Shown in pieces: positions 1 to 57,396 of a stretch of 64,000 nucleotides of DNA (positions are counted from its first letter, which is position 1; each line of letters opens with the position of its first letter). Both the position numbers and the translations under genes were made by a program. The stretch covers positions 1 to 64,000 of the forward strand of contig NIVC01003777.1 in assembly GCA_002269645.1 (NCBI GenBank). The letters are read 5' to 3'. The notes beneath the pieces are model-generated. The model ran no database searches and was not told the origin of the DNA. It was given only the letters and a program-made list of their open reading frames with translations. The stretch comes from Macrostomum lignano (taxonomy: Eukaryota).

Positions 1-3000
1 GTCCAATCTTCTTTTGCTGAATTGTGTGAATAATATGGTTTTTAGATTGTAGCTTTGAGAACTCATGTGATGTCTTTTTGTTGCAATTCAAGGCGTCTCT
101 GTATTCAGCTTCATTAATTTCCTTCCTAACCACAACGTTTCGGAATTCCCTTTGATTTTTTTATTGGGTCTGACGACTCACATTTTATAAAATAGGACTT
201 TGCTCTCAACAATGAATTCAGTGATTATGTCACCAGCAATCTCGTCCTTCATTTTCCCAATCACTTTCTTGTTAGTGGCGTCAAACACTGATCACCATTC
301 AGCGTCCTGCAAGATTTCGTCATACTCAGACAAGTCAAAAACTCTTTTTGCTGCAGCATGTCCTGATAAATGTCTTCTGTTTGAATGTCCATAATAAAAC
401 TGTCTGTGTCAGTGTACAAGAGTTTCATTTTATCCTTGTACTGCTGCTTCATGCATAGAAGAATTGGTACATCAGACGTTTTGATTCGTCGAGAACAGTG
501 ACACCTGTATAGATCGGCTTGCGCAGCGTCACCTTGGTTTTGTAAAATATGATCACACCTAAGTAGCTATTAAAGATATGGAGTTCTTTGAATGTTGGCT
601 TTGACAAATTTGCCTGAATAACATCAGGCTCTGATGAGGTAACAAGTTTCAGGTTTGTTCTTTTCCGCTCATTCTCAAGAGTCTTGCCATAGACAGAGTT
701 GTTGGCCAACTTAAAGAGGTTCTTGTCAAAGTCGTTGGTTGCTTTGGTCCTAAACTGGGTGTTCTTATCAATGTAGGGTTTCATCCACGCTTCCTCTGTA
801 AATGTAAGAGCCCTGTGAACTTTGGTGACCCTGCAACCAAGTGAGATAAAATACTGAAGCAGTTTGTAATGGATTTTGTAACGTGTCTTGTTGTTTAGAT
901 TCTGTGTTAGTTTCTCTGTATGTTCTTTTTCTGTTCCTGACAGGTGCCAAGTTCCATTATTATCATTGGGAGTTTCGATTATTTTCGGGCACTTGATGTT
1001 CTCTGGAAGGGTGGAAAGTCAGAGAAATAGTCGTGAAGCTCTGGTGGAATGTAAACATCAACCTCATAAATGGCAGCCAATGAAAAGTCCCATTTGAATT
1101 CTGATGAGGGTAGCCATCGAAAATCTCTAACTGGAAGATCTTGACTCATCGCCCACCCGTAGAGATTATTAGCGTCCAAGTAAGTAATGTAGTTTGAGGG
1201 CTGCTCCTTATTGTAAGATTCAATGTAGGGATTGTTTGCTTTTGCATACCTGTTAACGCAAATTGAGATTCCCCCTCGCTTTGACGATTCGACAAAATTG
1301 TACATGTCAATGTCTGTAAGAAGTTCAATGTACCAATCTGGATCTTGATCCCATTTCATTTTAAGCAAAGATTCCCAGCTAGTGGCAGGCAGAGACACAT
1401 AATGTGCTGGATCGAGGCCATATGCTGTGTACCAGGTGTATCTGAAGGTTTCAAACACATCGGCCAGCAGAAACACATCTGTGTAGAGGTAAAGCAGGTG
1501 ATACTGGAAGAAGTTTTGACAATTAAAGTAATTATAGACATGCTTCGCGTGCTCATAGTTTTGTCAGAGATTCCAGAGTCTGTTAGCTTTGAAAAGAACT
1601 TCTCCTGTGGTGGTAAACCTTCTTCAAATACGTGATACCCAGTAATATTTTCATAGGGGTAGAAGCCTTTGGTTCTCAGGAGTTTAAATGATTCATCAGT
1701 GTTGTTAATTTTACTTGCAAACATCTTTGTATATGTACATTGTTCATCTTTTAGATTCTTGCTTAGTTCGTCTAGACTGGCAGCTAGAAATTGATATGAA
1801 TCCTTCAGTCTTATTTTACCTGTACCCGAATTATCCTGTTTAATATCAACACACTTAAACTTCTCCTTGTTCTCTGCGATGCAATCAAGGTGTATGTCTG
1901 GAATCATGCCGATTTTTTCAACTATTAAATGCATGTCATAGTTCTTTGCGTTGTGACAAAATATCGTTAGATCATGAATGTTCGATTTTAGCTTTAGATT
2001 ACAGGTGTTATGCGCTGCACCTCTAAATTTCCCAGTAAGTGGCAGTGGTCCCTAACGGTGGGGTTTTTAATATTAGTGCAAGTTAAATGTTTCCTGCAGA
2101 TGTGGCAATGAGTTGCTGATAGGAAATTGCTTTCATCCTCCTCAGACATACATTATTGGAACAGGTTGAAGGGTGCTAATCACTTTTTGCAACTCTAACA
2201 TTCTGGCAATAAACTGCTCCACACACTGCTCTCCAAAGAAATAATTATACTCAACAAGTCCTTTTGTATTAATAAAGGCATATGCTACTGAATTGGGGAT
2301 ATGTTTTTGAGTTTGAGTTTGTTTTTGAGTTGAGTTTGTTTTTGAGTTGGAGTTTGTTTTTGAGTTTCTGGCACGATTGAGCATTCGAAATCAGCATATA
2401 CAACAAATGGGAGCTTCTCCATCTTGTGATAGTTCTTAAACCGGAGATACTTCTCTTCAGCTGAAGGAAGAGAGCAGTTTGTCGGGTGATCCTCGCATGA
2501 TAATTCATGCTCTGTTAGTTTTTCAAAGCGTTCAGGTCCACTGTAATGCTTAAGGCACAAGCGGCAGATGGCAACAGCCTCGTGATGATTATTCAACTGC
2601 TTGTGAATGAGTCTTGAAAGATCTTTAATCCAAACATAGTGAGCCTCCTCTAGTAAATTACCAATCACTAGAAGATCCACTTCAGTCCGCCTTTTCCCCT
2701 CGGGATCTAAAACGTCTTTGCTACATCTGACCGGTTGAACTTTCTCAGTTTTTCACTCCACTCAAAGACTGTGATTCTAATTTTGTTATTAAACACTTCT
2801 TCTAGCTTTGGGATCTGAGAGATTGCCAAGCCTCCTTTGTCAAACCTGATTCCCTTCTTTTCGCATTCAATGAGATAGTAGTTAAAATAATTTTGATAAT
2901 TTGAGGTTCTTTCGGGGTGGTGAGGGACACTAAAAAGTGCAGAAAGAACTGCCCATAGAGCACAGCAATTGTCTTTATTTTTAACATTTATGCAAGCTTT

Positions 3001-3772
3001 TTTACCGGCTAGCTTATGCGGGAGCTCTATATAAGAGGAGGCTTTAAGTGGGTCATATTTCATGACCTGACAGTCGCTCTTTGAATCCCTCCACGACCCA
3101 TCCGGAACCTCTGGATGTAAACGCTTCAATTTTCTTATTGACATCTTGAAGGAAAGGATCCAGTGTGTCTGTTGGGGTGAATGGCTTTGCCTTTGTTGTC
3201 ATGTAATACTCGAGATGCTCAGTGGGTTTTGCAGGCATATAAAACGCAATCTTGAATGATATCTGTAGTTTAAAGGTCTTGCGTGTTTTGAGTGTGTGAT
3301 CAACAACTGATTGGATGCTGTCTTTATAGTCGTAGATGTTTGCGGTGGTACCGTTGGTACCGTTAATTGGGATTGTGTACTCTATATAATGTTCTGTAAA
3401 CTTCGTCTGTGCAAAATTAATCTCTTCAGTGGCAAGCTCCGACTCTTTTAAATGGATTAATTGCTCTAATTTCTCTTGTTCCTGCTTATTTTGTGGGTAC
3501 TTTGCTTTTTCACCAGTGAGAGTTTCATATTTGTTAACTAAGTTGCGACTCCTCTCTTGGTGTTCCTTTGCAGAATTTTTTATAGGCGCATACTGGTTTG
3601 ATTCTAATTGATTGATGATTTCCAACTGTTTTTCATAGCTTCCCAGGTGACCAGGGTCGGTGTTGAACTTTTGTTTGCATGCTTCTCTTAGTGAATTACT
3701 TTTGTCTTGAAATGAGACGCCTTTTGAAAAATATTTGTTGACTAAATCTCTTGCTGGATTAGCTTTTGGCAT
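1..3772 (-). CDS. Protein-primed family B DNA polymerase (Polinton type) with embedded endonuclease VII-like Zn finger; multiply frameshifted, 3' end beyond window
   Basis: ATG at 3772. Motifs in order across ORF fragments: IEAFTSRGSGW, SSYIELP..KKACINVKNKDN, YADFE (ExoI), CHIC..RDHCH.TGKFRGAAHNTCNL (~1995-2110), FHNAKNYDMH, DSYQFL (ExoII), KGFYPYE, YLDANNLYGWAM (region A), KLANNSVYGK (B), YTDTDS (C), KKVIGKMKDE. Confidence 0.92.
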
Positions 3773-3895: not shown

Positions 3896-4351
3896 TCACA
3901 TCCGCATTATTGTAAACCCAGCATTGTGCAGTGTCATGATGGCTTTGACAATGTCAGACTTGCTTATAGAATTTTCATTCTCACAATCATCACAATCATC
4001 AAAATCAGGGCACCCATCTCCTGCCTTAATCGTTATACCTTTATCTCTTGCAATCTTTTGCAATTCTAGCTGGTGGGCCCTATCATTCCCAGCTTTAACA
4101 GCAGTTGCTACACCTCCAGCTACACCACCTGCGGCACTCACAGCGCCTGCAATGATCGGAATAAGAGCTGCTAATGGTAGGATTCCTCCTGACTTTTCAT
4201 CTGTGATGCTGTGTCTTTGTTCATTACACTGAACTATTTGCTGCGTGGGATCGATTTTTACTTTGATACCTTTAATTGATATAAGACCTGGTTTCTTTGA
4301 TTCAATGATTTTATTGAGTTTATTGATGGTTCTGGTTTCAATCTTTGTCAT
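3896..4351 (-). CDS. Adenovirus pX/Mu-like virion core protein (151 aa)
   Basis: SGGILPLAALIPIIAGAVSAAGG closely resembles the adenoviral pX C-terminal GGILPLLIPLIAAAIGA motif, which is also known from Polintons/adintoviruses. Confidence 0.7.
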   Translation of the reverse strand: MTKIETRTINKLNKIIESKKPGLISIKGIKVKIDPTQQIVQCNEQRHSITDEKSGGILPLAALIPIIAGAVSAAGGVAGGVATAVKAGNDRAHQLELQKIARDKGITIKAGDGCPDFDDCDDCENENSISKSDIVKAIMTLHNAGFTIMRM

Positions 4352-4367
4352 TTTTTATTTTAATATT

Positions 4368-5405
4368 TTAATTAATTTCCGTGTCAGCTGGTATCACTAG
4401 GAGTTCAGCTCTAGTGAATGACCGCGTGGGGGATTTAGGGTTAAAGGTTTGAGATAAAAAGTAATAGTCTCCAGAGTCGGAGGTAAAATGTCTGTCTATT
4501 TTATGTACATCAAGGCTGAAGTATGGATCTGTAGCTCTTCTTTTAGTGTCCTTCTCTAGCTCTCCAGGTAGATATAAAAAGCGTAGAAACTCAGAGTTTG
4601 TCAGTATGTATGGTGATTCAACTCCTGGAAGCTTAGGGTAGTTCGAGGTGTGTTTTGTGTTGTGTGTGTTGTGTGGGGTTGTCGTGTTGTTGTCTGTTTT
4701 ATGAGATGACTTAAGTTCGACAGTGTCTTGTTTAATTGCATGGGATGGTTTCAATCCAGTCATGCGTGTGACTTCATTGTTCAGTTGCTCTATAACAGTG
4801 GGGAGCCGGTCTGTCCACTTGGTATAGTATTGGCCACTTTTTAGTTTCAGCTCTTCAGCTGTCTGCTTAGTGAATAGCCTCTTGGCTAGAGTTAGATTGA
4901 ATCTTTCCACAAAAGCCTGGTCTCTGTGGAGCTCAGTTCTTCCATAGCGAATTTTTGTGTCATACTTATGTAGAAGTGATATCACTGCACCCATGAATTC
5001 TTTACCCGGGTCCGTCATAAAGATTTCAGGGTAACTAAGGGGTGAGTTTTTATAAATATCTTGCAGTGCGCTGGCAACAACCTCTGACTTCTTCGTCTTG
5101 AGTGGGCGAGCTTCCTTATATCTGGAAGCAATGTCAATAATTGTAAGAGCATACTTGTAGCCTGAGTCATTGGGGAGAAACAAAAGATCTGCTTGGTGCG
5201 CTTCATTAGGTTTATAAATACTGAAATGGGGCCTTTCAAATTTTACTGGTGGGAAATAGACTTGAAAGACAGCCTGCTTAGAGAGCCATTTTTCTACTGT
5301 AGCTTTTGGTTCCTTACTCAGCTCCATGAGTTTACTAACGGCATTTTTGCCTACAAAGAAACCTTTGTCGCTGTAGTAGAGTTTTTTAAGTTTCTGATCT
5401 GTCAT
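4368..5405 (-). CDS. Retroviral-like (rve) integrase of Polinton type, 345 aa, intact
   Basis: DDE triad in HQADLLF, FMTDPGKEF and AFVERFN; C-terminal RRATDP motif typical of Polinton integrases. Confidence 0.93.
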   Translation of the reverse strand: MTDQKLKKLYYSDKGFFVGKNAVSKLMELSKEPKATVEKWLSKQAVFQVYFPPVKFERPHFSIYKPNEAHQADLLFLPNDSGYKYALTIIDIASRYKEARPLKTKKSEVVASALQDIYKNSPLSYPEIFMTDPGKEFMGAVISLLHKYDTKIRYGRTELHRDQAFVERFNLTLAKRLFTKQTAEELKLKSGQYYTKWTDRLPTVIEQLNNEVTRMTGLKPSHAIKQDTVELKSSHKTDNNTTTPHNTHNTKHTSNYPKLPGVESPYILTNSEFLRFLYLPGELEKDTKRRATDPYFSLDVHKIDRHFTSDSGDYYFLSQTFNPKSPTRSFTRAELLVIPADTEIN

Positions 5406-5435: not shown

Positions 5436-5924
5436 ATGCAGCGCTCTGGTGGTAAGTTAGATTCACATGGACTGATAGAAAAGCTTCCTCATCCGAACAA
5501 AGGCTGGACACTTCCCGGCTATAAATATTGCGGGCCTTTGAATCCACTTGAAATACAGCTAGATAAAAACAATAATCCACATCCTGAGCATGAGCCTGTG
5601 AACGAGCTAGACTCTGTCTGCATGTGGCACGATGTTAAATATAGAGATTTTCCTGAGGAGAAGAATCGCTGGGACAAAGAAATGCTTAAGAGACTAGACA
5701 ATATAGGGGCTTCAAGCGGGTGGAAGGAGTCGATCGCTCGGAAGCTAGTTAAAGCTGTTATTTTTAGTAAGGCAAAGTTGGGTTTGGGGGTTCAAGGCGA
5801 AGGTGGGTGTTTGGGGAGAGAGGGCGGGTGTGCGGAGTGCTCGGGAGCGGGGTTTATTTTGTGTGCTCCAAACGAGGTATTAGGAAGACTGCTGAAAGAG
5901 CTGGGGGTTGAGAGAGGCGCTTGA
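5436..5924 (+). CDS. Parvovirus VP1u-like phospholipase A2 domain protein (162 aa from ATG 5436)
   Basis: GWTLPGYKYCGPLN Ca-loop-like motif and PVNELDSVCMWHDVKY (HDxxY catalytic motif). The ORF-track start at 5193 overlaps the integrase antisense, so ATG 5436 is preferred. Confidence 0.85.
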   Translation: MQRSGGKLDSHGLIEKLPHPNKGWTLPGYKYCGPLNPLEIQLDKNNNPHPEHEPVNELDSVCMWHDVKYRDFPEEKNRWDKEMLKRLDNIGASSGWKESIARKLVKAVIFSKAKLGLGVQGEGGCLGREGGCAECSGAGFILCAPNEVLGRLLKELGVERGA

Positions 5925-6250
5925 GTCGGGAAAGATTATTCGCAGCCAAGCGCAACAGCTGCATTTTGAAAGGGGGTGGGGTAACTGCTATTTGCTGAGG
6001 GAGCGCAGCTGTTGCGAATGTACAAGTTCCACGCGTGCTTTCCTTTCCTTTCCTTTCTTTCCTTTGTATTGCGCACGCCAAATAAAGAATTAGAAAGACT
6101 GCTGAACAGTTTACATTGATAAACAACTGAAGGACTGTAGCGACAGATTATAGTCGCTATATAGTTTATTAGTTTATTATAATTTTTCATGTGGTAAGCA
6201 ACGTGGCAACAACAGAGCATGCAGCAGAAGACAGAATGCCTATCGTAGGT

Positions 6251-6558
6251 AAATAATAATAATAATTGATTACAACTGCCCAATGGGCAGATGTGCAATC
6301 GACAGCTCAGCCGCAGCTATTGCGCGGCGCATCTTAAGGCTGCGTACGGCTGTTCAGTCCAAGGACTGGGGGTCGCCACACACACCCTCAATTACCCCAG
6401 CTAATGCTGGCACCCATTTTACAGCTGGGTGAACTGAAGCAATGCGGAGTAAAGTGCCTTGCTCAAAGACACAGATTGTTGCAGTGGGATCGGGAATCGA
6501 ACCCTCAACCTTCATTCAAGTAGTGAGTCCGACGCCCTAACCACTAGGCTATAACCCC
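6251..6558 (-). mobile_element. tRNA-derived CORE-type SINE inserted in the Polinton
   Basis: Reverse strand shows A box TAGCCTAGTGG, B box GGTTCGATTCC, a CORE-like block (CTTTGAGCAAGGCACTT...CAGCTGTAAAATGGG) and an (ATT)n tail. Homologous to copies at 27561, 37966 and 56855. Confidence 0.85.
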
Positions 6559-6728
6559 GTATGTGCAGGGTCTAAACTATGCAACAATATAAAAGGTTTC
6601 TGGGTGAGCGCCTGCTTTTTCTCCAGCCCTTCTCTCACCCGTCTTGCCCTACCGCCTCTCATTCCAAGCCTGTCCTCTGGGTGCCTCTCTCTCTTCGCAA
6701 CTAGCTCTACGCTCTCCTAGTCAAACAG

Positions 6729-7727
6729 CCACCTCAGAAAATGAAACCGCTGGTTTCAAATTTTGAGGTGGGTGATCTGAGTTCTGCACTGCTTCTCTAG
6801 CCTCCGCAACTAGCTCTACGCTCTCCCGAGCTCATTCTATTTGTAGTCAAACATAACACTAGCGATCTCGCGCTGGGGGGTAGAGGGGCGCCTGGGAATT
6901 TTGAGTCTCCCGTTGTACTGAAATCTCCTTCCCCTTGAGCTCCTCTCCCTTTCCCTTCCCCAGCAGTCCGGGCCAGAGCACTGGGCTCTCTTTGCACAGG
7001 GGCGCCGCGCCACCTCAGAAAATGAAACCGCTGGTTTCAAATTTTGAGGTGGGTGATCTGAGTTCTGCACTGCTTCTCTAGCCTCTGCAACTAGCTCTAC
7101 GCTCTCCCGAGCTTAGTCAAACAGCCACCTCAGAAAATGAAACCACTGGTTTCAAATTTTGAGGTGGGTCTACACTGCTGCGCTATCCAGTTCTCACCCG
7201 CCCTGCCACTCACTGCATGCAGTCCGCGCATTCCGCCACAAGTCCCCCCCCCCTTCTCTCTCCCCCCCCTTCTCTCTCCAGAATTGCAGAGGGTTGAGGG
7301 TTGAGCCGGGCGGGAGGGGTCTTTCGTTTTCTAGCCTCCACAACTAGCCGCTCCGTTTTCTTCTACGCTCTCCCGAGCTTAGTCAAACAGCCACCTCAGA
7401 AAATGAAACCACTGGTTTCAAATTTTGAGGTGGGTGATCTCTTCTACGCTCTCCCAACACATTGTATGGGTTTTATTTTTAGAACTTACGTCTACACTCT
7501 ACAAGGTACAACCTTCTGGGTGATCCCTCCGTTTTCTTCTACGCTCTCCTAGTCAAACACCCACCTCAGAAAATGAAACCGTTGGTTTCAAATTTTGAGG
7601 TGGGTGATCTGAGTTCTGCACTGCTTCCAGCAGAAACATTTGTCTACACTGTCTCAAGCAAATTTGCTATTTTAATCAAACACCCACCTCAGAAAATGAA
7701 ACCAGTGGTTTCAAAATTTGAGGTTGG
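6729..7727. repeat. Array of six 43-bp imperfect palindromes with modular spacers
   Basis: CCACCTCAGAAAATGAAACC-NNN-GGTTTCAAATTTTGAGGTGG starting at 6729, 7010, 7125, 7391, 7561 and 7684. Confidence 0.95.
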
Positions 7728-7815
7728 TGTCAACATTAGTAACTATCCAAGGATAACTTGCTATTATTGTAGCTTCATGAGTTGCTAAATAAACAATAGA
7801 TAGGTAATTTAAAAG

Positions 7816-8439
7816 TTAAAACAACAAGCCTTCGTCCACTTCCTGTTGCAGCATCGCAAGGGCCTCTGGCAAGTATGCAATCATCGACTTCAGCTTGTGC
7901 AGGGACATTGCAGATCTTTGTAGCACCGGATATTTCTCAGCTTGGTCAGCCAATTTCATCAGAAAGTTGGTCCACTGGCTGGTGAACGGTGCACGTCTTT
8001 TCAGCTCGTTGAACTGTTCCTTACTGAGAACCCGCTCCATTCTCAGAAAGATCCTGCCGAGCTGTAGGCCGTTTGCAAAGCCATGCTTACCATACCGTTC
8101 AACTAGCTTATGAAGGTTGGCAATCTGTACAAGCACTGCGTCGATTGTAAATGTTCCCTGCATAAATTCTTCTAGAGAATGCACTGGCACAGGCTCACTG
8201 TTGGTTTTATAGGCCGTGCGCAACTCGTCCAGAGCCTTGCTGATTTGTGATTGCTTGTCGGTAGTTTTCGCTAGCCGTCCATTGATAGTTGGCTTCACGA
8301 TTGGTGACCGAGCAATTGCATTGTATTTATCGGCCCAAAGATTCCAGTTGTCGAGATCTTTACTAGAAAAAACCGCCTTGATGAAGTTCTCCAGATTTTG
8401 GATGTAAACGTTGTTGCCTGCTTGCATTTCTTCATCCAT
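7816..8439 (-). CDS. Uncharacterised 207-aa predicted helical protein of the Polinton
   Basis: Uninterrupted ATG-initiated ORF of normal composition with promoter-like elements upstream; no family confidently recognised. Confidence 0.75.
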   Translation of the reverse strand: MDEEMQAGNNVYIQNLENFIKAVFSSKDLDNWNLWADKYNAIARSPIVKPTINGRLAKTTDKQSQISKALDELRTAYKTNSEPVPVHSLEEFMQGTFTIDAVLVQIANLHKLVERYGKHGFANGLQLGRIFLRMERVLSKEQFNELKRRAPFTSQWTNFLMKLADQAEKYPVLQRSAMSLHKLKSMIAYLPEALAMLQQEVDEGLLF

Positions 8440-8556
8440 GGCAAGATCCAGAGATTAAGCTAGTCAAAAATAAGAAGTTGCTGGCTCAGCGAGTTGAGGC
8501 GGGGTGAGGCGAGGCGGGGCAGGCAGGGTGAGGCGAGGGGCGGTGTGAATCGGCTG

Positions 8557-8636
8557 TATATATACCATTGGTGTGGGCTCGGGAATCCACGGATTCTCTT
8601 TTTGTTCTAGAATTTTCTAGAATTCGAATTCTAGAA
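8557..8636 (-). promoter_or_regulatory. Heat-shock-element / CCAAT / TATA promoter upstream of the 207-aa ORF
   Basis: TTC-TA-GAA-TT-TTC-TA-GAA at 8605-8622 (four alternating nGAAn units), a further TTCTAGAA at 8629-8636, CCAAT on the minus strand at 8571-8567, TATATATA at 8557-8564, ATG at 8439. Confidence 0.65.
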
Positions 8637-8988
8637 GGGAAACCCGCAGATTTTCTACTTATAGCCAGTATTTTCTATTAATGGTTGATTGGGGTTGCCT
8701 GGGAAAGATCTAGGAAGACTGCTGAAAGAGCTGGGGGTTGAAAAGGCTGGGGGTTTAAACAAGGAACTAAATGGGCGTTTCTGAAGCTAGGCAAGGGATC
8801 TTCTGAGCTAGTTAGGGTTGAGCTGGGCAAAAGCTTTTTTCTCTATGCTGCACACGCCGCTCGCGCTATGACCAGAAACAGCTGCCATACCCATTCCGCT
8901 ATCACCCACCCGCCACACAGCAAAATACCATGCGTAAAAATATCTATTATTGCAGTCTTAAAGTCTTAAAGCGTATCGTAACGACATT

Positions 8989-9228
8989 CTACAATTGCTT
9001 AATGATTTCTGCAAAGTTATAATAGCTGTCGTAATCTTTTACATATGTTACTCCGTACTTATGAAACCAGTGTCTTTGGAGAGCTAGGTTAATATTAGGG
9101 ACATTGATATCAACGTCGGGCCAATATTTTCTCATGTATTCGCTGCATTCAAGTTTGCATTGGTACTTGGATTTGTACAATGGATTAGGCTGAGTATAAT
9201 AAGAACCTGGAGAGACAACTGGAAACAT
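8989..9228 (-). CDS. Small orphan ORF (79 aa, Tyr-rich) in the Polinton
   Basis: ATG preceded by AATAAA like neighbouring element genes; no homology recognised. Confidence 0.45.
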   Translation of the reverse strand: MFPVVSPGSYYTQPNPLYKSKYQCKLECSEYMRKYWPDVDINVPNINLALQRHWFHKYGVTYVKDYDSYYNFAEIIKQL

Positions 9229-9430
9229 TTTATTGAGAATTTATTATTTTTTTTCAAAGGGTAAGGACCCTGCGCTGATAATTTAAAGTCTTAGGGATCT
9301 GGTAGCACGTTGCAAATTGAATGTGGGCCCCATGGGGAGAAGAATTCAGATTATTTTCTTATTGTTTCGAAGATGTTAGTGGATTATGTCAGTGTCAGTG
9401 AACATAACAGGTGTTAGTGGACACCTGCTC

Positions 9431-9727
9431 TGATTCTGTCAGGGATAATATGGATGGATTTAATACGATTATGTTCGAAGTTTTCGGAGCAAGTGCGACC
9501 CCTCCACTTTTTCATGATTCTGTCGGGGATAATATGGATGGATTTAATGGGATTATGGAGGACGTTTTGTGAGCGAGTGCGACCCCCCTTTTTTTCTGAT
9601 TCTGTCAGGGATAATATGGATGGATTTAGGTGGATTATGGAGGATGTTTTGTGAGCAGGTGCGACCCCCCTTTTTTTCTGATTCTGTCAGGGATAATATG
9701 GATGGATTTAGGTGGATTATGGAGGAG
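9431..9727. repeat. ~82-bp tandem repeat, ~3.5 copies
   Basis: Units TGATTCTGTCAGGGATAATATGGATGG... start at 9431, 9515, 9597 and 9679. Confidence 0.9.
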
Positions 9728-9768
9728 GTGAAAAATTTTGTCCCAGAAGCCCCCTCATGCCCTCTACT

Positions 9769-10390
9769 CTAACGGGGTAGAAAAACAAGGGGGTTGAAAA
9801 CTAGGCAGGGCTATAGCTAACGGGGTAGAAAAACAAAGGGGGCTGAAAACTAGGCAGGGCTATAGCTAACGGGGTAGAAAAACAAGGGGGGTTGAAAACT
9901 AGGCAGGGCTATATCTAACGGGGTAGAAAAACAAGGGGGTTGAAAACTAGGCAGGGCTATAGCTAACGGGGTAGAAAAACAGGGGGTTGAAAACTAGGCA
10001 GGGCTATATCTAACGGGGTAGAAAAACAAGGGGGTTGAAAACTAGGCAGGGCTATAGCTAACGGGGTAGAAAAACAGGGGGTTGAAAACTAGGCAGGGCT
10101 ATAGCTAACGGGGTAGAAAAACAAGGGGGTTGAAAACTAGGCAGGGCTATAGCTAACGGGGTAGAAAAACAAAGGGGGCTGAAAACTAGGCAGGGCTATA
10201 GCTAACGGGGTAGAAAAACAAAGGGGGCTGAAAACTAGGCAGGGCTATAGCTAACAGGGCAGAAAAACAAGGGGGTGTTGAAAAGTAGGCAGGGCTATAG
10301 CTAACGGGGTAGAAAAACAAGGGGGAGTGAAAACTAGGCAGGGCTATAGCTAACAGGGCAGAAAAACAAGGGGTGTTGAAAAGTAGGCTG
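9769..10390. repeat. ~48-bp tandem repeat, ~13 copies (probable subterminal repeat of the element)
   Basis: Unit CTAACGGGGTAGAAAAACAAGGGGGTTGAAAACTAGGCAGGGCTATAG with small variants. Confidence 0.93.
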
Positions 10391-10648
10391 GAGAGTTAGG
10401 GAGAGAACGATAAAGCTGACAGAGGGGGTTGGAAGAGAGGTGCCGTGCAGAAATATAATACGAGTACAAACGTAATTGTACGAAAGTGCATGGACCTGAT
10501 AGATCGATATAAGCGAAATTCAGCAAATGAATTAATTCTCTTAGTAAACAGCATTGAGAGTCTGACCTACCTTTTATACTAAGAGGTATCTCGGCGCATC
10601 TTTGAACGCTCACATTCAGTCAACTTCCAATTTCCGATTTCCCATCAG

Positions 10649-18890: not shown

Positions 18891-20167
18891 CTAAGCGGCC
18901 TTGGCAACCGTGACAGTGTAACCAAAGTTAGCCTTAAGCTGCTCCAGGAACACGAAGGTGAGCACCGTGTGCGGAGCCAGACGCACAAACGCCGGCACGA
19001 TGCCTTTGAAGAAGCCGAAGAACAGGAAACCGGAGGCGTAGATGTCGGCGGCACAGGCGGAGAGACCCGTGTAGGCGCCCGGCTTGGCGTTCATTAGGCG
19101 AGTCTTCATCACGTCGAACGGCTGCGTGACCAGGGTGGCTGTGCCGCCCGCCCCGAAGCTCGCAGTGAAGTGCGTCAACGGGTCGTCGCCGAACAAGCCG
19201 GTGGACATCAGGGCGCCCTTGAATAGGTCGTAGAAGGCCAGCTGGCCGAAGGTGACCAGGGCGGCTCGTGTGGACGTCATTGAGACTCCGTTCATAACTT
19301 TGACGGCGCCCTCATTGCGGCACACCTGCAATGGTCATGGGGTGCTCATAGACTGGTCATAGGGTGGGGCTGCCGATGCTCACAGAATGGTCATGGGGTG
19401 GAGCTGCAGCTGCTCATAGACTGGTCATGGGGTGGGGCTGCCGCTGCTCATAGACTGTTCAGGGTGGGGCTGTCGCTGCTCATAGACTGTTCAGGGTGGG
19501 CTGTCGCTGCTCATAGACTGTTCAGGGTGGGCTGTCGCTGCTCATAGACTGGTCATAGGTGGGGCTGCCACAGATCATAGCATTGGTCACGGGACCCGAT
19601 AACACATGGTAGTACTGCCCTGCTCAAGAGTACATGCACTTTTAAATCCCATGCACGCAAATAAACAATTGCACAAAAGCAAAATTGGCAATATCAGGTG
19701 ACTCCGCCCACCTGGTAGAGCCCGTCAAACACGTGACGATAATTCCTCCGCTGATCCAGCGGCAGTTTGACATCGTTCTGCATGCGCACGTTCACCATGT
19801 CGGCCGGGTTGCCAACCACGCCGCCAACGAAGCCGCCAATTAGGGCGACGCCGGCAGACTCGGCGAACGACATCTTGGCCTGGCCTTTTCTGCTCTTGTA
19901 GGTCTCGTAGATGGCAAATCGGGTCATGGAGTACGTCAGCTGGCGCATGATGGAAGCAGAAAGGCCATTGTACAGTCCCATAATGCCATCCCGCTTCAGC
20001 ACAACGACACCCATGCGAACCAGCCCAATGTCTGCCTTCTGCTGCGTCTGCAGATGCACCTTCAGCAGGTCCAACGGATGGGTGCAGGCTGCGGCCATGG
20101 CGCTGGCGACTCCACCAAAGTACCAATAGCCCATGTGCTTCACTTCTGGCTGCTTGTTGGATGCCAT
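18891..20167 (-). CDS. SLC25A10: Mitochondrial dicarboxylate carrier (SLC25A10/DIC-like), 296 aa, 2 exons
   Basis: Exons 20167-19712 and 19325-18891 (GT-AG, phase 0). Three carrier signatures PLDLLK, PADMVNVR and PFDVMKTR; DIC-typical RQLTYSMTRF, VRMQND and RLAPHTVLTFVFLEQL. Confidence 0.9.
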
Positions 20168-22032
20168 CTTGATGCTGTAAGTCATAGAAATAGAGCTTGA
20201 CTATGAGATTACCAACTGACTCTCTGGGTAAGATTGTGAGATATTAACTAATTCTCTAGGTGACACCAACTATGAGACTATAATTCTTGACCTAGTTAAA
20301 TAAATTTATAATAAAAATATTGAAGAGTATTGTTCATATATTTGAGATAATTATAAATAGTTATTATTTTTTATGCCAACCTTATTTAAATTTTAAAAGA
20401 AATACTTATTTTTAGAAATTTCAAGTCAATAAAATTTATATTATTATTTGTTTTTAATTATATTTTTAATAGTATTACTACATTTTTCTATCAATATATT
20501 ATCATTTTTATCATAACAATTTCTAATAATCAGGTAGCTATTATATATTATTAAATAATTTTAAAATTAAGCTTAAAATAGGAAAATTAAAAATTATAAT
20601 ACTTAACTATAATAAGCATAAGGTCAAAACAATTTTAGTAGACCTAATAAAACTTTTGCATTTCTATGACTATAAACATAGAACTAGGTCACTAGGGCCA
20701 AGGGCCTGCTGCCTATAATGAGAAACTAGGCTTTTTTGAAGGGCACCACTTTAAAATAATAAACTTAAGAAATAGTAATACAACTAGGCCCAATTTTCTT
20801 TATAACAAAACAAGATAAAACTAGATTTTTAGGGAGAGTAGGCACTTTGCATCTTACTTAGTAACATACCATGTGCCACTAACTATGCTCTCCTACTGTA
20901 CTGGAAAATTGACTTAACTTTGAGAAAATACCTACTGCCAAAGCAGCCAAACCTAGGATAATAGCATAGGTCTATGCTATTGTAATTGTACTAGATGTCG
21001 CAGCTGAAAAATGCGCTTGAGGTTAAGGATAAGCCTTTAGTAGCTGACTATAGCCTATGCTATGACTATGTGCAGCATGCGCCCATATTGAATTGAGATT
21101 CTATTCCTAATTCCCATGTAAAACAGAAGCAGTGCTTATGTCATTGCCAGAAAATGTGTATAGCCTTTAAGCACAAATTGATAATAAAAAAATTCAATTA
21201 AGTTTACATAAGTTTCCTCTATTTTTAAAAAGAACTTAATGTCATCTTATTTGTTTTTTAACCTCAATTTGTTACCTAAATATTATATTAAATCGTTCAT
21301 CTTGAATCGTTGCAAAAAACGAAATTAAATAATCTCTTGTAGCAGATTCTTTTAAACATACTAAATCGGAGTTAATAAATTTCTGATGCAAAACAGTCGT
21401 TAAAGCATAAGAAACTATTTATTTATTTAAAAAACTGACTGATTTTGTTTTACTTTGCTGCGCCATGCAAACTTTCGCATTTCGGCAAATGTCCCAGGCT
21501 TAAATACCTTTGAAGGCGCATATTGGTGCAGAGTAGGATTGATTATTGAGAGCTGTTTAACTTAAAATCACCAGCCTTTCATCATCATGCAATTTTAATT
21601 TGCAAAGAGGCTCGTGATCAATAACATTTATATTTTGAAACTTTTTTTCAGGATGATATCAGAGTTTTTCTAAAAAGCAAGTTTGCAAATATTGTAGCTT
21701 TTCGCTAGCTCGAAGATGTTCAAGACAATTTAAATTTTTTTAAGCACTTTAGGTTTTTATTGCAATTTTATTTTATTTCGATTTTTTTACTCTCAAGTAG
21801 AGCAGACAATACATATTTGTGTCATATCATTTCAATACAATAACAGCAGTCAGCAGATGATTTGAACCAACAGTACATGTACGTATACATGCTTCTGTTC
21901 ATGCAAACAGCAAACTTTGACAAATTTATCCGTCAATCTAGCAACAGATATCAATGTAACAAAGATAAGAATAAATTTGCTAGTCATACGAGCTAGTATC
22001 TACTTGAAGCTAGTATTACTCGTAAGTCTCAA

Positions 22033-53100: not shown

Positions 53101-56100
53101 TTATGCAGAGCTCGGCCTCTGTGAGAGTGCGGATGATGCCGGCCAGCGAGGTGGAGTTTAGCGGAGCCACAGGCAGCCACGAGTTCTGCGTGCAGAGCGT
53201 CTTCACTGAGGAAGGAGCTGAAGGCGAATTTCCATTCGTTCGGCTGGTTGTCGTCTTCTCGGTGCGCTGCTTACTGGGTCGGGGGGAAGGGATCGGAAGG
53301 GAAGAGTTGTAGGGAAGGGGTCGGAGGGAAAGAGTTGGAGGGGAAGGGGTCAGAGGGGAAGGGATCGGAGGGGAAGAGTTGGAAGGGAAGGGATCGGAGG
53401 GGAAGGGATCGGAGGGGAAGGGATCGGAGGGGAAGGGATCGGAGGGGAAGGGATCGGAGGGGAAGGGATCGGAGGGGAAGGGATCGGAGGGGAAGGGATC
53501 GGAGGGGAAGGGATCGGAGGGGAAGGGATCGGAGGGGAAGGGATCGGAGGGGAAGGGATCGGAGGGGAAGGGATCGGAGGGGAAGGGATCGGAGGGGAAG
53601 GGATCGGAGGGAAGGGATCGGAGGGGAAGGGATCGGAGGGGAAGGGATCGGAGGGGAAGGGATCGGAGGGGAATGGATCGGAGGGGAAGGGGTTGGAGGG
53701 GAATAGGTCGGAAGGGCAGGGGTCGAAAGGAAAGGGTTCGGGGGGGGGGGAGGAATCTGACAGAAGGGATCCGAGGGGAGTTTTCAAAGTGGAAGAGGTT
53801 AATGAAGCTGTAGAAAGGTGTAGAAAGCAAACAGACAGGGTGGCCTCCTAGGTTGTCACCTGAGACAAAGTAAATTTTGGATAATTTACTGTGGAACTCA
53901 CTCGAAAATTAATAATTTGATTTCGTTCACCAAAGCGCCGATCAACATTCTACCTGGTGAACATCGTCATACCCAGCCTCCTGCTGCTCGCCATCTCAAC
54001 CCTGGTATTCCGCCTGCCACCGGAATGCGGCGAGCGAATGTCCCTGAGCGTCACCATCGTGCTGTCGATGTGCGTGTTCCTGCAGCTGGCTGGCAGCTAC
54101 ACCCCAACGCAGAGCGAAGCTGTGCCTCTGCTCAGTGAGTTAAATAAATTTCAGAACTCCGTTTTTGGATCCTGATACAAAACTTTCGGTAGAATGTACA
54201 AAAGTGCAAGGATGCATACACACACACACACATCGAAAAAAGATACAACACTTATCTTTAAATATATGATTGCCAGTTTTATTGGTTCTTTGCTTTTACA
54301 ACGCATTTTTGTAAAATTTATAACAGGCAAGTCATACGGAAGTATTGTAAGGATTAGCCTTTCATCCGAAGAAATGAAAAGGTCCAATCTCAGTAGTGTT
54401 ATTTTTCTCGTACTTTCGCGTGAAGCCAGTATTAACAGTAGAACTACCAAGAGGGGGAAATTCCCCCCCCCCCTGACATTTTTTTGCTGCGCCGGAACGG
54501 AGCAACGCAGGCACACGAAATTCAAGAAAACGGGCTAATTTTTTGTTGCGCACCTTCTCAAACAAGAATCAAGTCGCCAGCCCTCCGGACCGTCGAGATA
54601 TTCGACGATTATGCCAGAAGGTCGGATTTTTCCCATAAGCGCCAGTGTATTCAGTGCACCCCTGTGCGCCAGTCAGCACTGCGCCTCAGTGCAGCCTCGC
54701 CAAGCCTCCAAATTTCATCAGCACGTAGACCAAATGTGTCTGCATCAGCTCTGACTTCGTTGGTCACTAGCCTTCACCCAGGCGGAGCTTCTGGACCTTC
54801 AGCAGGTGGCACCAAGTGACTATGGACAGCCTGATGCAGATTTCTCTAGTTTCGCCGATCAAGCCTTGACAGTGAGCAAAAATCAACTGCTGGGCATCCT
54901 CAGCTAGTCTCTCAAACATTCCGTCATCACCCCGACACCGTCGGCACCTTCAACAGATTACACCAGGCGATTATTGGCATCCTGTTGCAAATATTTTAGA
55001 CTGTTCTGATCAATCTTCAATAATGGGCAAACCTCTACTGCTAGGTATCCTCAACTAGTTTTTCAAGCATCCGGTCGTCATTCAGCCGTCGTCGGCACCT
55101 TCAAGAAGACGAAACCGACTATAGACACCCAAAAGAGAATATTTTTATTGTTAACAATTTTAGCAATTTATAAGATAGAAGACTAGATATCCAGTATATT
55201 ATGAATTGATCTTCATTCCGAACAGAAAATTGGATAATTTCTAGTAATTTTTTCTTCGCGAAGATTCTGTTCAATTTACAGTTTAATTAGCAAATTACGT
55301 CATCAAGTTTACTTAATTATGTCCGGTGATGATAGACTGTTTGAGAGTATAGCTGAGAACGACCAGAAGTTAAAGTTTGCCTATTATTGATGTTGGTCAG
55401 CGACATCAAAGAAATTCGCAACAGCGTGTCCATTGTCACCTGTTTTCATCTGTTGAAGGAGCCGACGGCGTCGGGTGATGATAGAATGCTCGAGAGACTA
55501 TCTGAGAATGTCCGTCGGTTGAGGCTTGCCCATTATTGAAGCTTGATAAGAAAAATCTGACATATTTGCAACAGGATGTTCATAGTCATCTTGTGTCATC
55601 TGTTGAAGGTGCCGACGGCGTCGAGGTGATGACGGAATGCTTGACAGACCAGCTGAGGATGTCCAGCAGTTGATTTTGCCCACTGTCGAGGCTTGATCAG
55701 CGAAACTAGAGAAATTCGTATCAGGCTGTCCATAGTCACCTGGTGCCACCTGTTGAAAGTCCAGAAGCTCCGCCTGGGTGAAGGCTAGTGACCAACGAAG
55801 TCAGAGCTGATGCAGACACATGTGGTCTACGTGCTGATGAAATTTGGAGGCTTGGCAAGGCTGCACTGAGGCGCAGTGCTGACTGGCGCACAGGGGTGCA
55901 CTGAATACACTGGCGCTTATGGGAAAAATCCGACCTTCTGGCATAATCGTCGAATATCTCGACGGTCCGGAGGGCTGGCGACTTGATTCTTGTTTGAGAA
56001 GGTGCGCAACAAAAAGTTAGCCCGTTTTCTTGAATTTCGTGTGCCTGCGTTACTCCGTTCCGGCGCAGCAAAAAAATGTCAGGGGGGGGGGGGAATTCCC

Positions 56101-57396
56101 CCCTTCTCTTGGTAGTTCGACGGGCGGAAAAATGGCTTGGTATTCCTACTGTTAAAAGCGTTTCGAGCTACTTATAGTAGTCATCTTCTTAATCAAATTT
56201 CAGCCTATCACTGCAGCGCGGTGGCCATGCTGACCATGGGCAGCCTGCTCGGCAATGTGTTCGTGCTCGACTGCCACTTCAAGCTGCAGCGGGGCGGCAG
56301 GCGGGTGGTCAGTCCGCTGGTCCGGCTGCTGTTTCTCAACCGCTGCATTACTGGGAATTGCAAGCGAACGGCAGACGCGGTGAGTCACGCGACAATCTCG
56401 AAAGGCATCTGACAGAAGCTAAATTTGAGCCACAAGGAGACAGGGGCGCCAACCAAGAGACAGGGGCACCCACCAAGAGACAGGGCGCCCACCAAGAGAC
56501 AGGGGCGGCCACCAAGAGACAGGGGCGGCCACCAAGACAGCAAATATTGTCGACCCTTAGGGTTAAATAAATTATTGTGCACGCCACTAAGCCTGCGAGT
56601 TGAATATAAATCTATAGAGGGGAGAACTCGGACTTATAAGAAGCTTTTGAAGAGTTAAGCAAGATAAATTGAGCTATTAAATGTGTATCTAAAAGTGAGA
56701 TTCAAACTCTTTAGTAACTTATATGCTAGCTGGTTATAACCGCTAAGTTACGGACTCACCCGCATTCAACGTTTAGCCTTTTATATAGATAACTATATAG
56801 TAATTAGGTCAAGTGAATGATGGTTGGCGCCATCTATGGTGGTTGGTTGCATTGGGGGTTGTAGCCTAGTGGTCGATCCCACTGGAACAATTTGTTTCCT
56901 TGAGCAAGACACCTAACTCTGCATTGCTTCAGTTTATCCAGCTGTAAAATGGGTGTCAGCATTAGCTGGGGTAATTGAGGGTGTGTGTGACGACCATACG
57001 CAGCCTTCAGATGCGCCGCGCAATAGCTGCGGCTGAGCTGTCGATCTGTCCCGATTAGTGCAGGTGTAATCAATTATTATTATTGAACAGTTTCTTAGTT
57101 CCCTCTCGCTATTTCTCTGATAAAACGTCAAGATCAGCTCCTGGTGTAACATTGCATCGTTACATTGTGCCGTCCCATTTCCACAGAGGGTACTACCAGC
57201 CAACAAGACTTCGGGCAGCTCTGACGCCGAGACGGAGGAGGCAGCCGGTCGAGAAGTCAATGAATGGCTGGTCGTGGTTGCTGCCGCTGACAGGTGTCTG
57301 TTCGCCCTGTTCCTGTCCGCCACTCTCACCATAGCCGTCGCAGTTTGCTGCGTTGAGACGAGCTCTGTGCGAGCCTGCCAGTACAGCGCCTACTGA
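47135..57396 (+). CDS. Divergent nicotinic-type Cys-loop ligand-gated ion channel subunit (436 aa, 7 exons)
   Basis: Exons 47135-47374, 48199-48243 (45 nt), 48322-48440, 52940-53261, 53936-54134, 56204-56379 and 57187-57396 sum to 1311 nt in frame. Signal peptide, VRP, WQPD, Cys-loop CRFDMRNFPYDAQRC, TM1-3 with GER before TM2, TM4 EW..V...DR; AATAAA at 57522. Confidence 0.9.
47419..47885. repeat. 28-bp minisatellite in channel intron 1
   Basis: Unit TAGTGTCCGAAACTCCAACACCGAT(A/C)TC, ~16 copies. Confidence 0.96.
48473..52464 (-). mobile_element. Ty3/Gypsy LTR retrotransposon, antisense in a channel intron; 5' LTR truncated
   Basis: TSD CCAAT at 48468-48472 and 52465-52469. 3' LTR 48473-48705 (TGTT...AACA) with adjacent PPT AAAGGAAGAGGGA; only 32 bp of 5' LTR (52433-52464). 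Confidence 0.93.
48718..52431 (-). CDS. Gypsy gag-pol (gag-PR-RT-RH-INT), two frame disruptions
   Basis: Zn knuckle, VDSGAS protease, YRVLPYGL/FIDD RT, TTDASPYG RNase H and VTDNGRQF integrase. Frame breaks at ~51720 (CATTTGAAG, one T short of H-F-E-A-A-C) and ~49215 (before PASNGVAE). Confidence 0.92.
53280..53760. repeat. 15-bp purine-rich minisatellite (GGAGGGGAAGGGATC)n in a channel intron
   Basis: Direct inspection. Confidence 0.96.
54436..56151. mobile_element. Foldback element with ~670-bp inverted arms, flanked by TTAA
   Basis: TTAA-CAGTAG...CTACTG-TTAA; arms ~54441-55110 and ~55445-56118; the mirrored 111-aa ORFs differ at few residues. Confidence 0.85.
56430..56535. repeat. ~20-bp CCAAGAGACAGGGGCGC minisatellite (second locus ~58790-58995)
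   Basis: Same unit at both loci. Confidence 0.85.
56855..57084 (+). mobile_element. CORE-type SINE with deletion between A and B boxes
   Basis: GGGGTTGTAGCCTAGTGG head, core block and (ATT)n tail. Confidence 0.85.

Follow-up and report, generated by a model that had tools for sequence, protein, structure and literature searches.

A Maverick/Polinton family of Macrostomum lignano carries a portable promoter, composed of a heat shock element (HSE) and a TATA box, in the variable slot that holds its first gene. When the host experiences heat or proteotoxic stress, its heat shock factor (HSF) probably acts through this promoter to turn on the slot gene, whose product is predicted to be an early regulator that binds DNA. 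Heat induction of the slot genes is considered likely because the HSE core is conserved, host hsp70 genes follow the same design, and HSE-bearing LTR elements of this species are heat-induced. The copy described here lies in a window of 64 kb, that is, the whole stretch of DNA that was analysed, and its features are collected in Table 1.

Table 1. Features of the Maverick/Polinton copy and its slot promoter (positions in the window)
Feature	Position	Strand	Remarks
Protein-primed PolB (pPolB)	449-3772	-	Split into several frames in the window copy
pX-like core protein	3896-4351	-	PF05829
rve integrase	4368-5405	-	PF00665, 1e-9
PLA2-domain gene	5436-5924	+	PF08398, 8e-14
Hypervariable slot	5938-8990		Between PLA2 end (~5937) and left TIR
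First AATAAA past the ORF207 stop	7472-7477	-	Likely 3' end signal, by inferred use
ORF207, slot (cargo) gene	7816-8439	-	Intact 207-aa ORF; all-alpha protein of an unnamed family
Type I promoter cassette	8459-8699	-	Shared with copies bearing other slot genes
TATA box TATATATA	8557-8564	-	40 bp from the HSE, 125 bp before ATG 8439
CCAAT	8567-8571	-	2 bp from the TATA box
Perfect four-unit HSE TTCTAGAATTTTCTAGAA	8605-8622	-	Four phased nGAAn units
Perfect 22-bp palindrome	8615-8636		Overlaps both HSE blocks; not in the preliminary description
Two-unit HSE block TTCTAGAA, upstream	8629-8636	-	Out of phase with the 8605-8622 block
Left TIR	8991-9768		~780 bp; ends ...CTACT at 9768 (5'-AGTAG terminus)

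The element belongs to a multi-copy family of about 16-18 kb, as estimated from sister copies (TIR-to-TIR length of approximately 16.4-17.6 kb in contigs C3589 and C897), and the PLA2 motif counts 158 copies in the genome. The CTACT end is sharp, the flanking sequence differs at most insertion places, and a 6-bp target duplication is seen in one short copy (L124). The pPolB gene lies in broken pieces in the window and matches PF03175 (7e-16) in a sister copy. Because the contig start cuts the window copy, the A32 ATPase (PF04665, over the cut-off) and an adenain-like protease (recognized by its H-W..D motif and tblastn alone) were read from sister copies. A weak match to a DJR capsid (PF21738, E 3e-5, below the cut-off) and a putative penton, which has no Pfam match, also come from sister copies. 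The bare AT-rich gaps that had been described upstream of the pX-like, integrase and PLA2 genes are present; the integrase and PLA2 starts lie 30 bp apart, and the gap ahead of pX measures 16 bp. Five more core genes in a sister copy display the same trait, with 80-93% AT across the 30 bp before the ATG. In two sister copies, no four-unit HSE was found elsewhere than in the slot, core-gene upstream regions included.

Other features of the window lie beyond the TIR. A 49-bp tandem array (9769-10420) represents the host flank at the insertion site, outside the element. Two ORFs at 18891-20185 on the minus strand presumably resemble a mitochondrial carrier. A long inverted repeat (54453-56102), with 429-nt arms that are 97% complementary, is possibly a MITE.

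ORF207 occupies the first gene position inside the left TIR. Slots differ completely between copies, whereas the backbone remains about 88-97% identical, and at least ten divergent cargo types occur in the slot, in either orientation, with and without an HSE. The slot sample was taken from the first 64 of 158 listed copies; 62 were analysed, in two sets of 52 and 10 slots. Among the 52, 14 are shorter than 500 bp and thus nearly empty, and 23 match a single protein-domain profile. An HSE with a TATA box is found in 11 of the 52 (mean of 0.03 in shuffles) and in 8 of the remaining 10. The total is 19 of 62, about a third (approximately 0 in shuffles), in a sample whose copies are related and partly duplicated and whose counts are not independent; 43 sampled slots lack the combination. 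Some slot genes contain GT-AG introns and are therefore Pol II transcripts. Two short, cargo-less slots (L160 and L168) have tandem repeats containing HSE-like arrays of three to four units. A partly palindromic unit of 60 bp is scattered through the slot of ORF207-type copies, with about six occurrences in the window (6623-7727).

The four-unit HSE is the sole perfect match in the window, and none of 100 shuffles gives one. Across the genome, perfect four-unit HSEs number 526 sites in 764 Mb versus 107 for a reversed control; with a TATA box 15-45 bp downstream, there are 244 matches versus 4. The upstream two-unit block is missing in 5 of 25 promoter haplotypes through an 11-bp deletion. ORF207 transcription would start at about 8530-8535. 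The preliminary description had reported both HSE blocks and a TATA box some 40 bp downstream, facing the intact 207-aa frame, and each of these was recovered. It had also listed the CCAAT motif, which is present and probably not a working CCAAT box, because it lies so close to the TATA box, is altered in some copies and is missing from the related promoter of L134 and L196. Its candidacy as an NF-Y site was rejected, and so was the idea that the HSE is part of the TIR.

Read contigs from four runs span ORF207, promoter and TIR alike, and they run through the promoter. None of the listed sequence holders is recorded as RNA in the expression look-up. In run X19, TIR contigs (8991-9350) are up to about 9000 deep, compared with about 130 for the ORF, and this excess is greater than in the other three runs. 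Derivatives that consist of the TIR alone, or transcripts of the TIR, may account for the depth in X19.

Heat-shock genes of the host follow a similar design. Full starts are available for 18 of 30 fetched hsp70 loci, and all 18 carry a three- to four-unit HSE 13-14 bp before a TATA box. A host Hsp20 gene also has an HSE followed by a TATA box, and the genome yields seven HSF-domain matches (PF00447). An hsp20 reporter is documented in the accessible text of PMC6371448. The slot promoter resembles the hsp70 and Hsp20 promoters in placing a three- to four-unit HSE ahead of the TATA box, but its 40-bp gap exceeds that of hsp70, where a second, distal HSE also occurs. An HSF-type promoter of hsp70-like architecture remains the best reading, given its retention among copies, its conserved core, the uniform hsp70 design and the presence of host HSF. 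Capture from host hsp70 or Hsp20 was rejected, as no similarity extends beyond the HSE.

HSEs are also common in repeats of the M. lignano genome. A Helitron encoding a PIF1 helicase and an OB-fold RPA-like gene (L135, L083 and L084; G000:C129 at ~828700, also C17 and C262) contains a perfect HSE4 between TATA boxes on either side. In the published heat table of PMC12801592, as accessible, all 11 PIF1 rows are down. A further repeat family (L079, L089, L093, L098 and L137; G000:C104, C181, C201, C221 and many more), frequently arranged in 1.3-kb tandems, combines an HSE4 and a TATA box with additional HSE-like units.

The slot promoter is portable and not tied to ORF207, because the same HSE-TATA block (type I) precedes at least four cargos and the closest ORF207 paralogs (28-39% identical) have no HSE. 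The cargos comprise ORF207, a 271-273-aa gene, several intron-bearing genes and a 237-aa gene, and those other than ORF207 are 13-20% identical to it over the shared domain. Type I homology stops at varying points (8459-8513) in GC-rich repeats of the 5' leader, which suggests recombination there. Reshuffling of promoter and cargo through recombination in this leader is likely.

Conservation of the motif was evaluated across type I copies. A flank pattern independent of the HSE recovers 40 places, 39 of which retain an intact HSE; over all distinct type I places, the figure is 41 of 43. Among 25 haplotypes, 1 of 18 columns varies in the HSE core versus 54 of 149 in the flanks (p=0.005); under the strictest filter, with CpG sites and the 3' end removed, the values are 1 of 18 versus 33 of 121 (p=0.034), and these p-values are rough because the copies are related.

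A diverged variant (L134 and L196) keeps both HSE blocks and a TATA box within new flanks, and its promoter lies at the opposite slot end in reversed orientation. In these two copies, the HSE is flanked by two TATA boxes, one directed toward the cargo and the other toward the PLA2-integrase-pX-PolB block. A type II promoter, found at 44 sites, combines a distinct HSE4 with a TATA-like box 10-14 bp further on; it precedes two different cargos. A 225-aa type II gene corresponds to NCBI Mlig026570. Type III (L166) is a third HSE4-TATA promoter, and its sister L194 has the same core without the HSE. The three types have only the HSE in common. In L015, L016, L157, L193 and L194, the same core promoters occur with no HSE, L132 has a broken HSE unit, and an L034-type paralog likewise lacks the HSE. 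Comparison of these promoters indicates that the slot acquired an HSE-TATA promoter three separate times.

ORF207 had been regarded as an orphan gene. This view is not sustained, because 151 clusters (50% identity) in public data match a profile derived from 12 slot proteins, and Desmophyllum coral proteins are among them. ORF207 also has 63 matches in its own genome, 20 of them at 83-100% identity, with further families near 38, 31 and 30%. Among metagenome loci of the slot family, one of four adjoins a PLA2 gene, and an HSE precedes the homolog at one of three loci with upstream sequence. The latter is a coral-like homolog whose ATG has a three-unit HSE (L231:200-212) some 70 bp upstream, with no TATA box seen there; a close sister of this locus (L234) lies near a PLA2 gene and is without an HSE. 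In an exact look-up, one of ten slot proteins is letter-identical to a named M. lignano protein record. Homology searches with ORF207 as a single protein and with five sequences returned no matches, and the ESM Atlas returned weak, unnamed clusters only. Sequence scans against Pfam, PHROGs and PDB gave no family for the slot protein, and no relatives were found in viral contigs. Kinship of two cargo subgroups rests on their joint profile, because the profile-profile match between them is weak (probability 5%, E 0.008).

ORF207 is under purifying selection, with pN/pS values of 0.16-0.39 in those 8 of 11 pairs in which at least five synonymous changes occur. A structure model from 65 sequences (pLDDT 90) is all alpha, and neither Foldseek nor VIA assigns it a confident fold (best Z 6.4). 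The C-terminal domain is basic (pI 10.1) and the N-terminal half acidic (5.3). The protein may resemble a DUF3102 or ParB-type HTH domain. PF11300 matches 1 of 65 family members (E 0.017), the DUF3102 match (E 1.6) comes from a low-confidence model only, and a Spo0J match (Z 5.4 across 93 residues) ranks 48. From charge and a weak fold hint, we infer that ORF207 may be a DNA-binding early regulator or a conflict effector.

In the proposed mechanism, HSF would very likely bind the slot HSE and recruit Pol II. Under heat or proteotoxic stress, HSF would cause Pol II to make a short transcript from the slot gene, while promoter and cargo would be shuffled independently of each other. HSF control may have been favoured several times, as in the LTR elements of this host, and, on balance, the repeated HSE gain would reflect an advantage of producing the slot protein in a stressed host. 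As a more tentative step, somewhat short of an even chance, the slot protein might act on DNA or chromatin in a manner that favours the element. Reactivation of the whole element by slot gene induction alone would be unlikely.

The preliminary description had gone further and proposed a host-stress-triggered switch for reactivating the integrated virus, in which the HSF-induced slot protein would turn on the AT-rich core promoters and thereby initiate excision, replication and packaging. The position of the slot, the occurrence of Pol II regulatory motifs in this slot only, with bare AT-rich leaders at the core genes, and the capsid (a weak match), ATPase and protease of sister copies are consistent with such a switch. 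Against it, 43 of 62 slots lack the HSE-TATA combination and 14 are nearly empty, and the low identity of the cargos behind one promoter is unlike a dedicated activator. The heat table of PMC12801592, in its accessible form, lists 1120 rows up and 1913 down (3033 regulated) after a 2-h heat shock. One pPolB+EndoVII row is up (log2FC 2.8, baseMean 4), which would agree with a switch; one pPolB row is down and no PLA2, pX, A32 or protease family row is among the 3033, although this is a weak test, with 2 h of heat, 3'-end reads and rows that are not mappable to the Maverick family or to ORF207. Mavericks and Polintons are not mentioned in the accessible main text of that study. In a coral, as reported in the accessible text of PMC11131425 without a statistical test, core-gene expression of polintoviruses clusters by colony and not by heat treatment. 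Because most copies lack the HSE, published heat data contain no element-wide induction, the promoter is not gene-bound and core genes of two sister copies have no HSE upstream, this proposal is not supported so far and is judged unlikely. A plausible reading, held with less than even confidence, is that the slot hosts diversifying effectors of host-element or element-element conflict, such as anti-silencing or immunity-like repressors, with HSF control as one of several expression regimes and not tied to replication. The wealth of divergent cargo types in a single slot of a backbone that is 93-97% identical, in both orientations and in the presence or absence of an HSE, together with purifying selection within a cargo type, argues for this reading, which is nonetheless compatible with HSF-driven expression of the slot gene and not exclusive of it.

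Two other explanations concern the motif itself. The HSE could be a neutral passenger, a piece captured with its TATA box from a mobile element or host gene, amplified with the copies and silenced in vivo. The 32 bp around the type I HSE are 87.5% identical to the Helitron promoter, yet 18 of these 32 bases are the HSE itself; the abundance of HSEs in genomic repeats and the existence of HSE-less derivatives also agree with passive capture. The better conservation of the HSE core relative to its flanks, and three separate gains in the slot, compared with no HSE ahead of core genes in two sister copies, make this origin quite improbable. Least probable is that the motif is not read by HSF and serves instead as a palindrome recognized by an element protein, or as a replication or packaging signal. 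The palindrome is perfect and lies about 350 bp inward of the TIR, but many copies that retain the four-unit HSE have lost or disrupted it. It was rejected on this ground as a functional unit and is probably a by-product. Moreover, three unrelated promoters converge on nGAAn phasing with a TATA box, and most copies are without the motif. HSF control of a portable slot promoter remains the preferred reading.

To the question of what activates animal Polintons, the slot promoter would contribute a concrete host signal, HSF, and a defined promoter. The family offers built-in controls, as one and the same backbone exists in HSE-bearing and HSE-less forms. Transgenesis is available in this species, and so are public heat-shock RNA-seq reads (37 C versus 20 C, E-MTAB-14939, as named in PMC12801592). 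The slot also points to a widespread, unnamed accessory protein family with a possible tie to coral heat stress. A broader generalization, that animal Mavericks possess an interchangeable slot for an immediate-early regulator, which the M. lignano family has wired to host HSF at least three times, is regarded as doubtful; under it, the HSE upstream of one coral homolog would be a hint of a recurrent HSF link in corals. If true, such an HSF-wired slot would be a eukaryotic counterpart of stress-induced prophage induction. Within the literature covered, which extended to papers outside subscription, no account of HSEs in Polintons was found. HSE capture by mobile elements is already known, and it is apparently seen here for the first time in a Maverick.

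The backbone is closest in content to the PLA2-type adintoviruses described in the accessible text of PMC8502044. Both possess pPolB, rve integrase, A32 ATPase, adenain-like protease, pX, PLA2 and TIRs, as well as an accessory gene upstream of PolB; the DJR capsid of adintoviruses has a weak counterpart in the M. lignano family. Adintovirus Oncoids are defined there by LxCxE and paired CxxC motifs; ORF207 has neither of these and no cysteine at all, and its assignment as an Oncoid was rejected. The word "promoter" is absent from the main text of that source, as accessible. A functional parallel is found in herpesvirus immediate-early promoters, where, according to the accessible text of PMC12047821 and 10.1101/2024.09.23.614483, the early genes of nuclear DNA viruses come under the action of host HSF. 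Herpesviruses differ in being unrelated viruses that are not germline-integrated.

Heat-activated transposons provide the nearest regulatory comparison. According to the accessible text of PMC12801592, ONSEN/COPIA78 of Brassicaceae and Helitron1_CE of C. elegans are likewise mobile elements wired to HSF through canonical HSEs, but they belong to other element classes and their HSEs control transposition genes. The HSE-bearing Ty3/Mdg4 LTR retrotransposons share the host, the canonical HSE before a TATA box and several independent gains with the Maverick. In the accessible parts of PMC12801592 and its preprint (10.1101/2024.12.18.629116), four of six families of HSE-bearing LTR retrotransposons in M. 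lignano are heat-induced approximately 2^8-fold and two are not, and HSE mutation abolishes the induction. There, the HSE is part of the LTR and controls the full genomic RNA, with induction proven. In contrast, the Maverick HSE lies outside the TIR and precedes a single accessory gene that is exchangeable, in a DNA element with a putative capsid gene, and its induction is predicted. Heat-activated HSE transposons carry the motif directly before replication or transposition genes, whereas the Maverick carries it in the accessory slot only. HSE capture, known from retrotransposons and Helitrons, would thereby reach a DNA element that putatively encodes a capsid.
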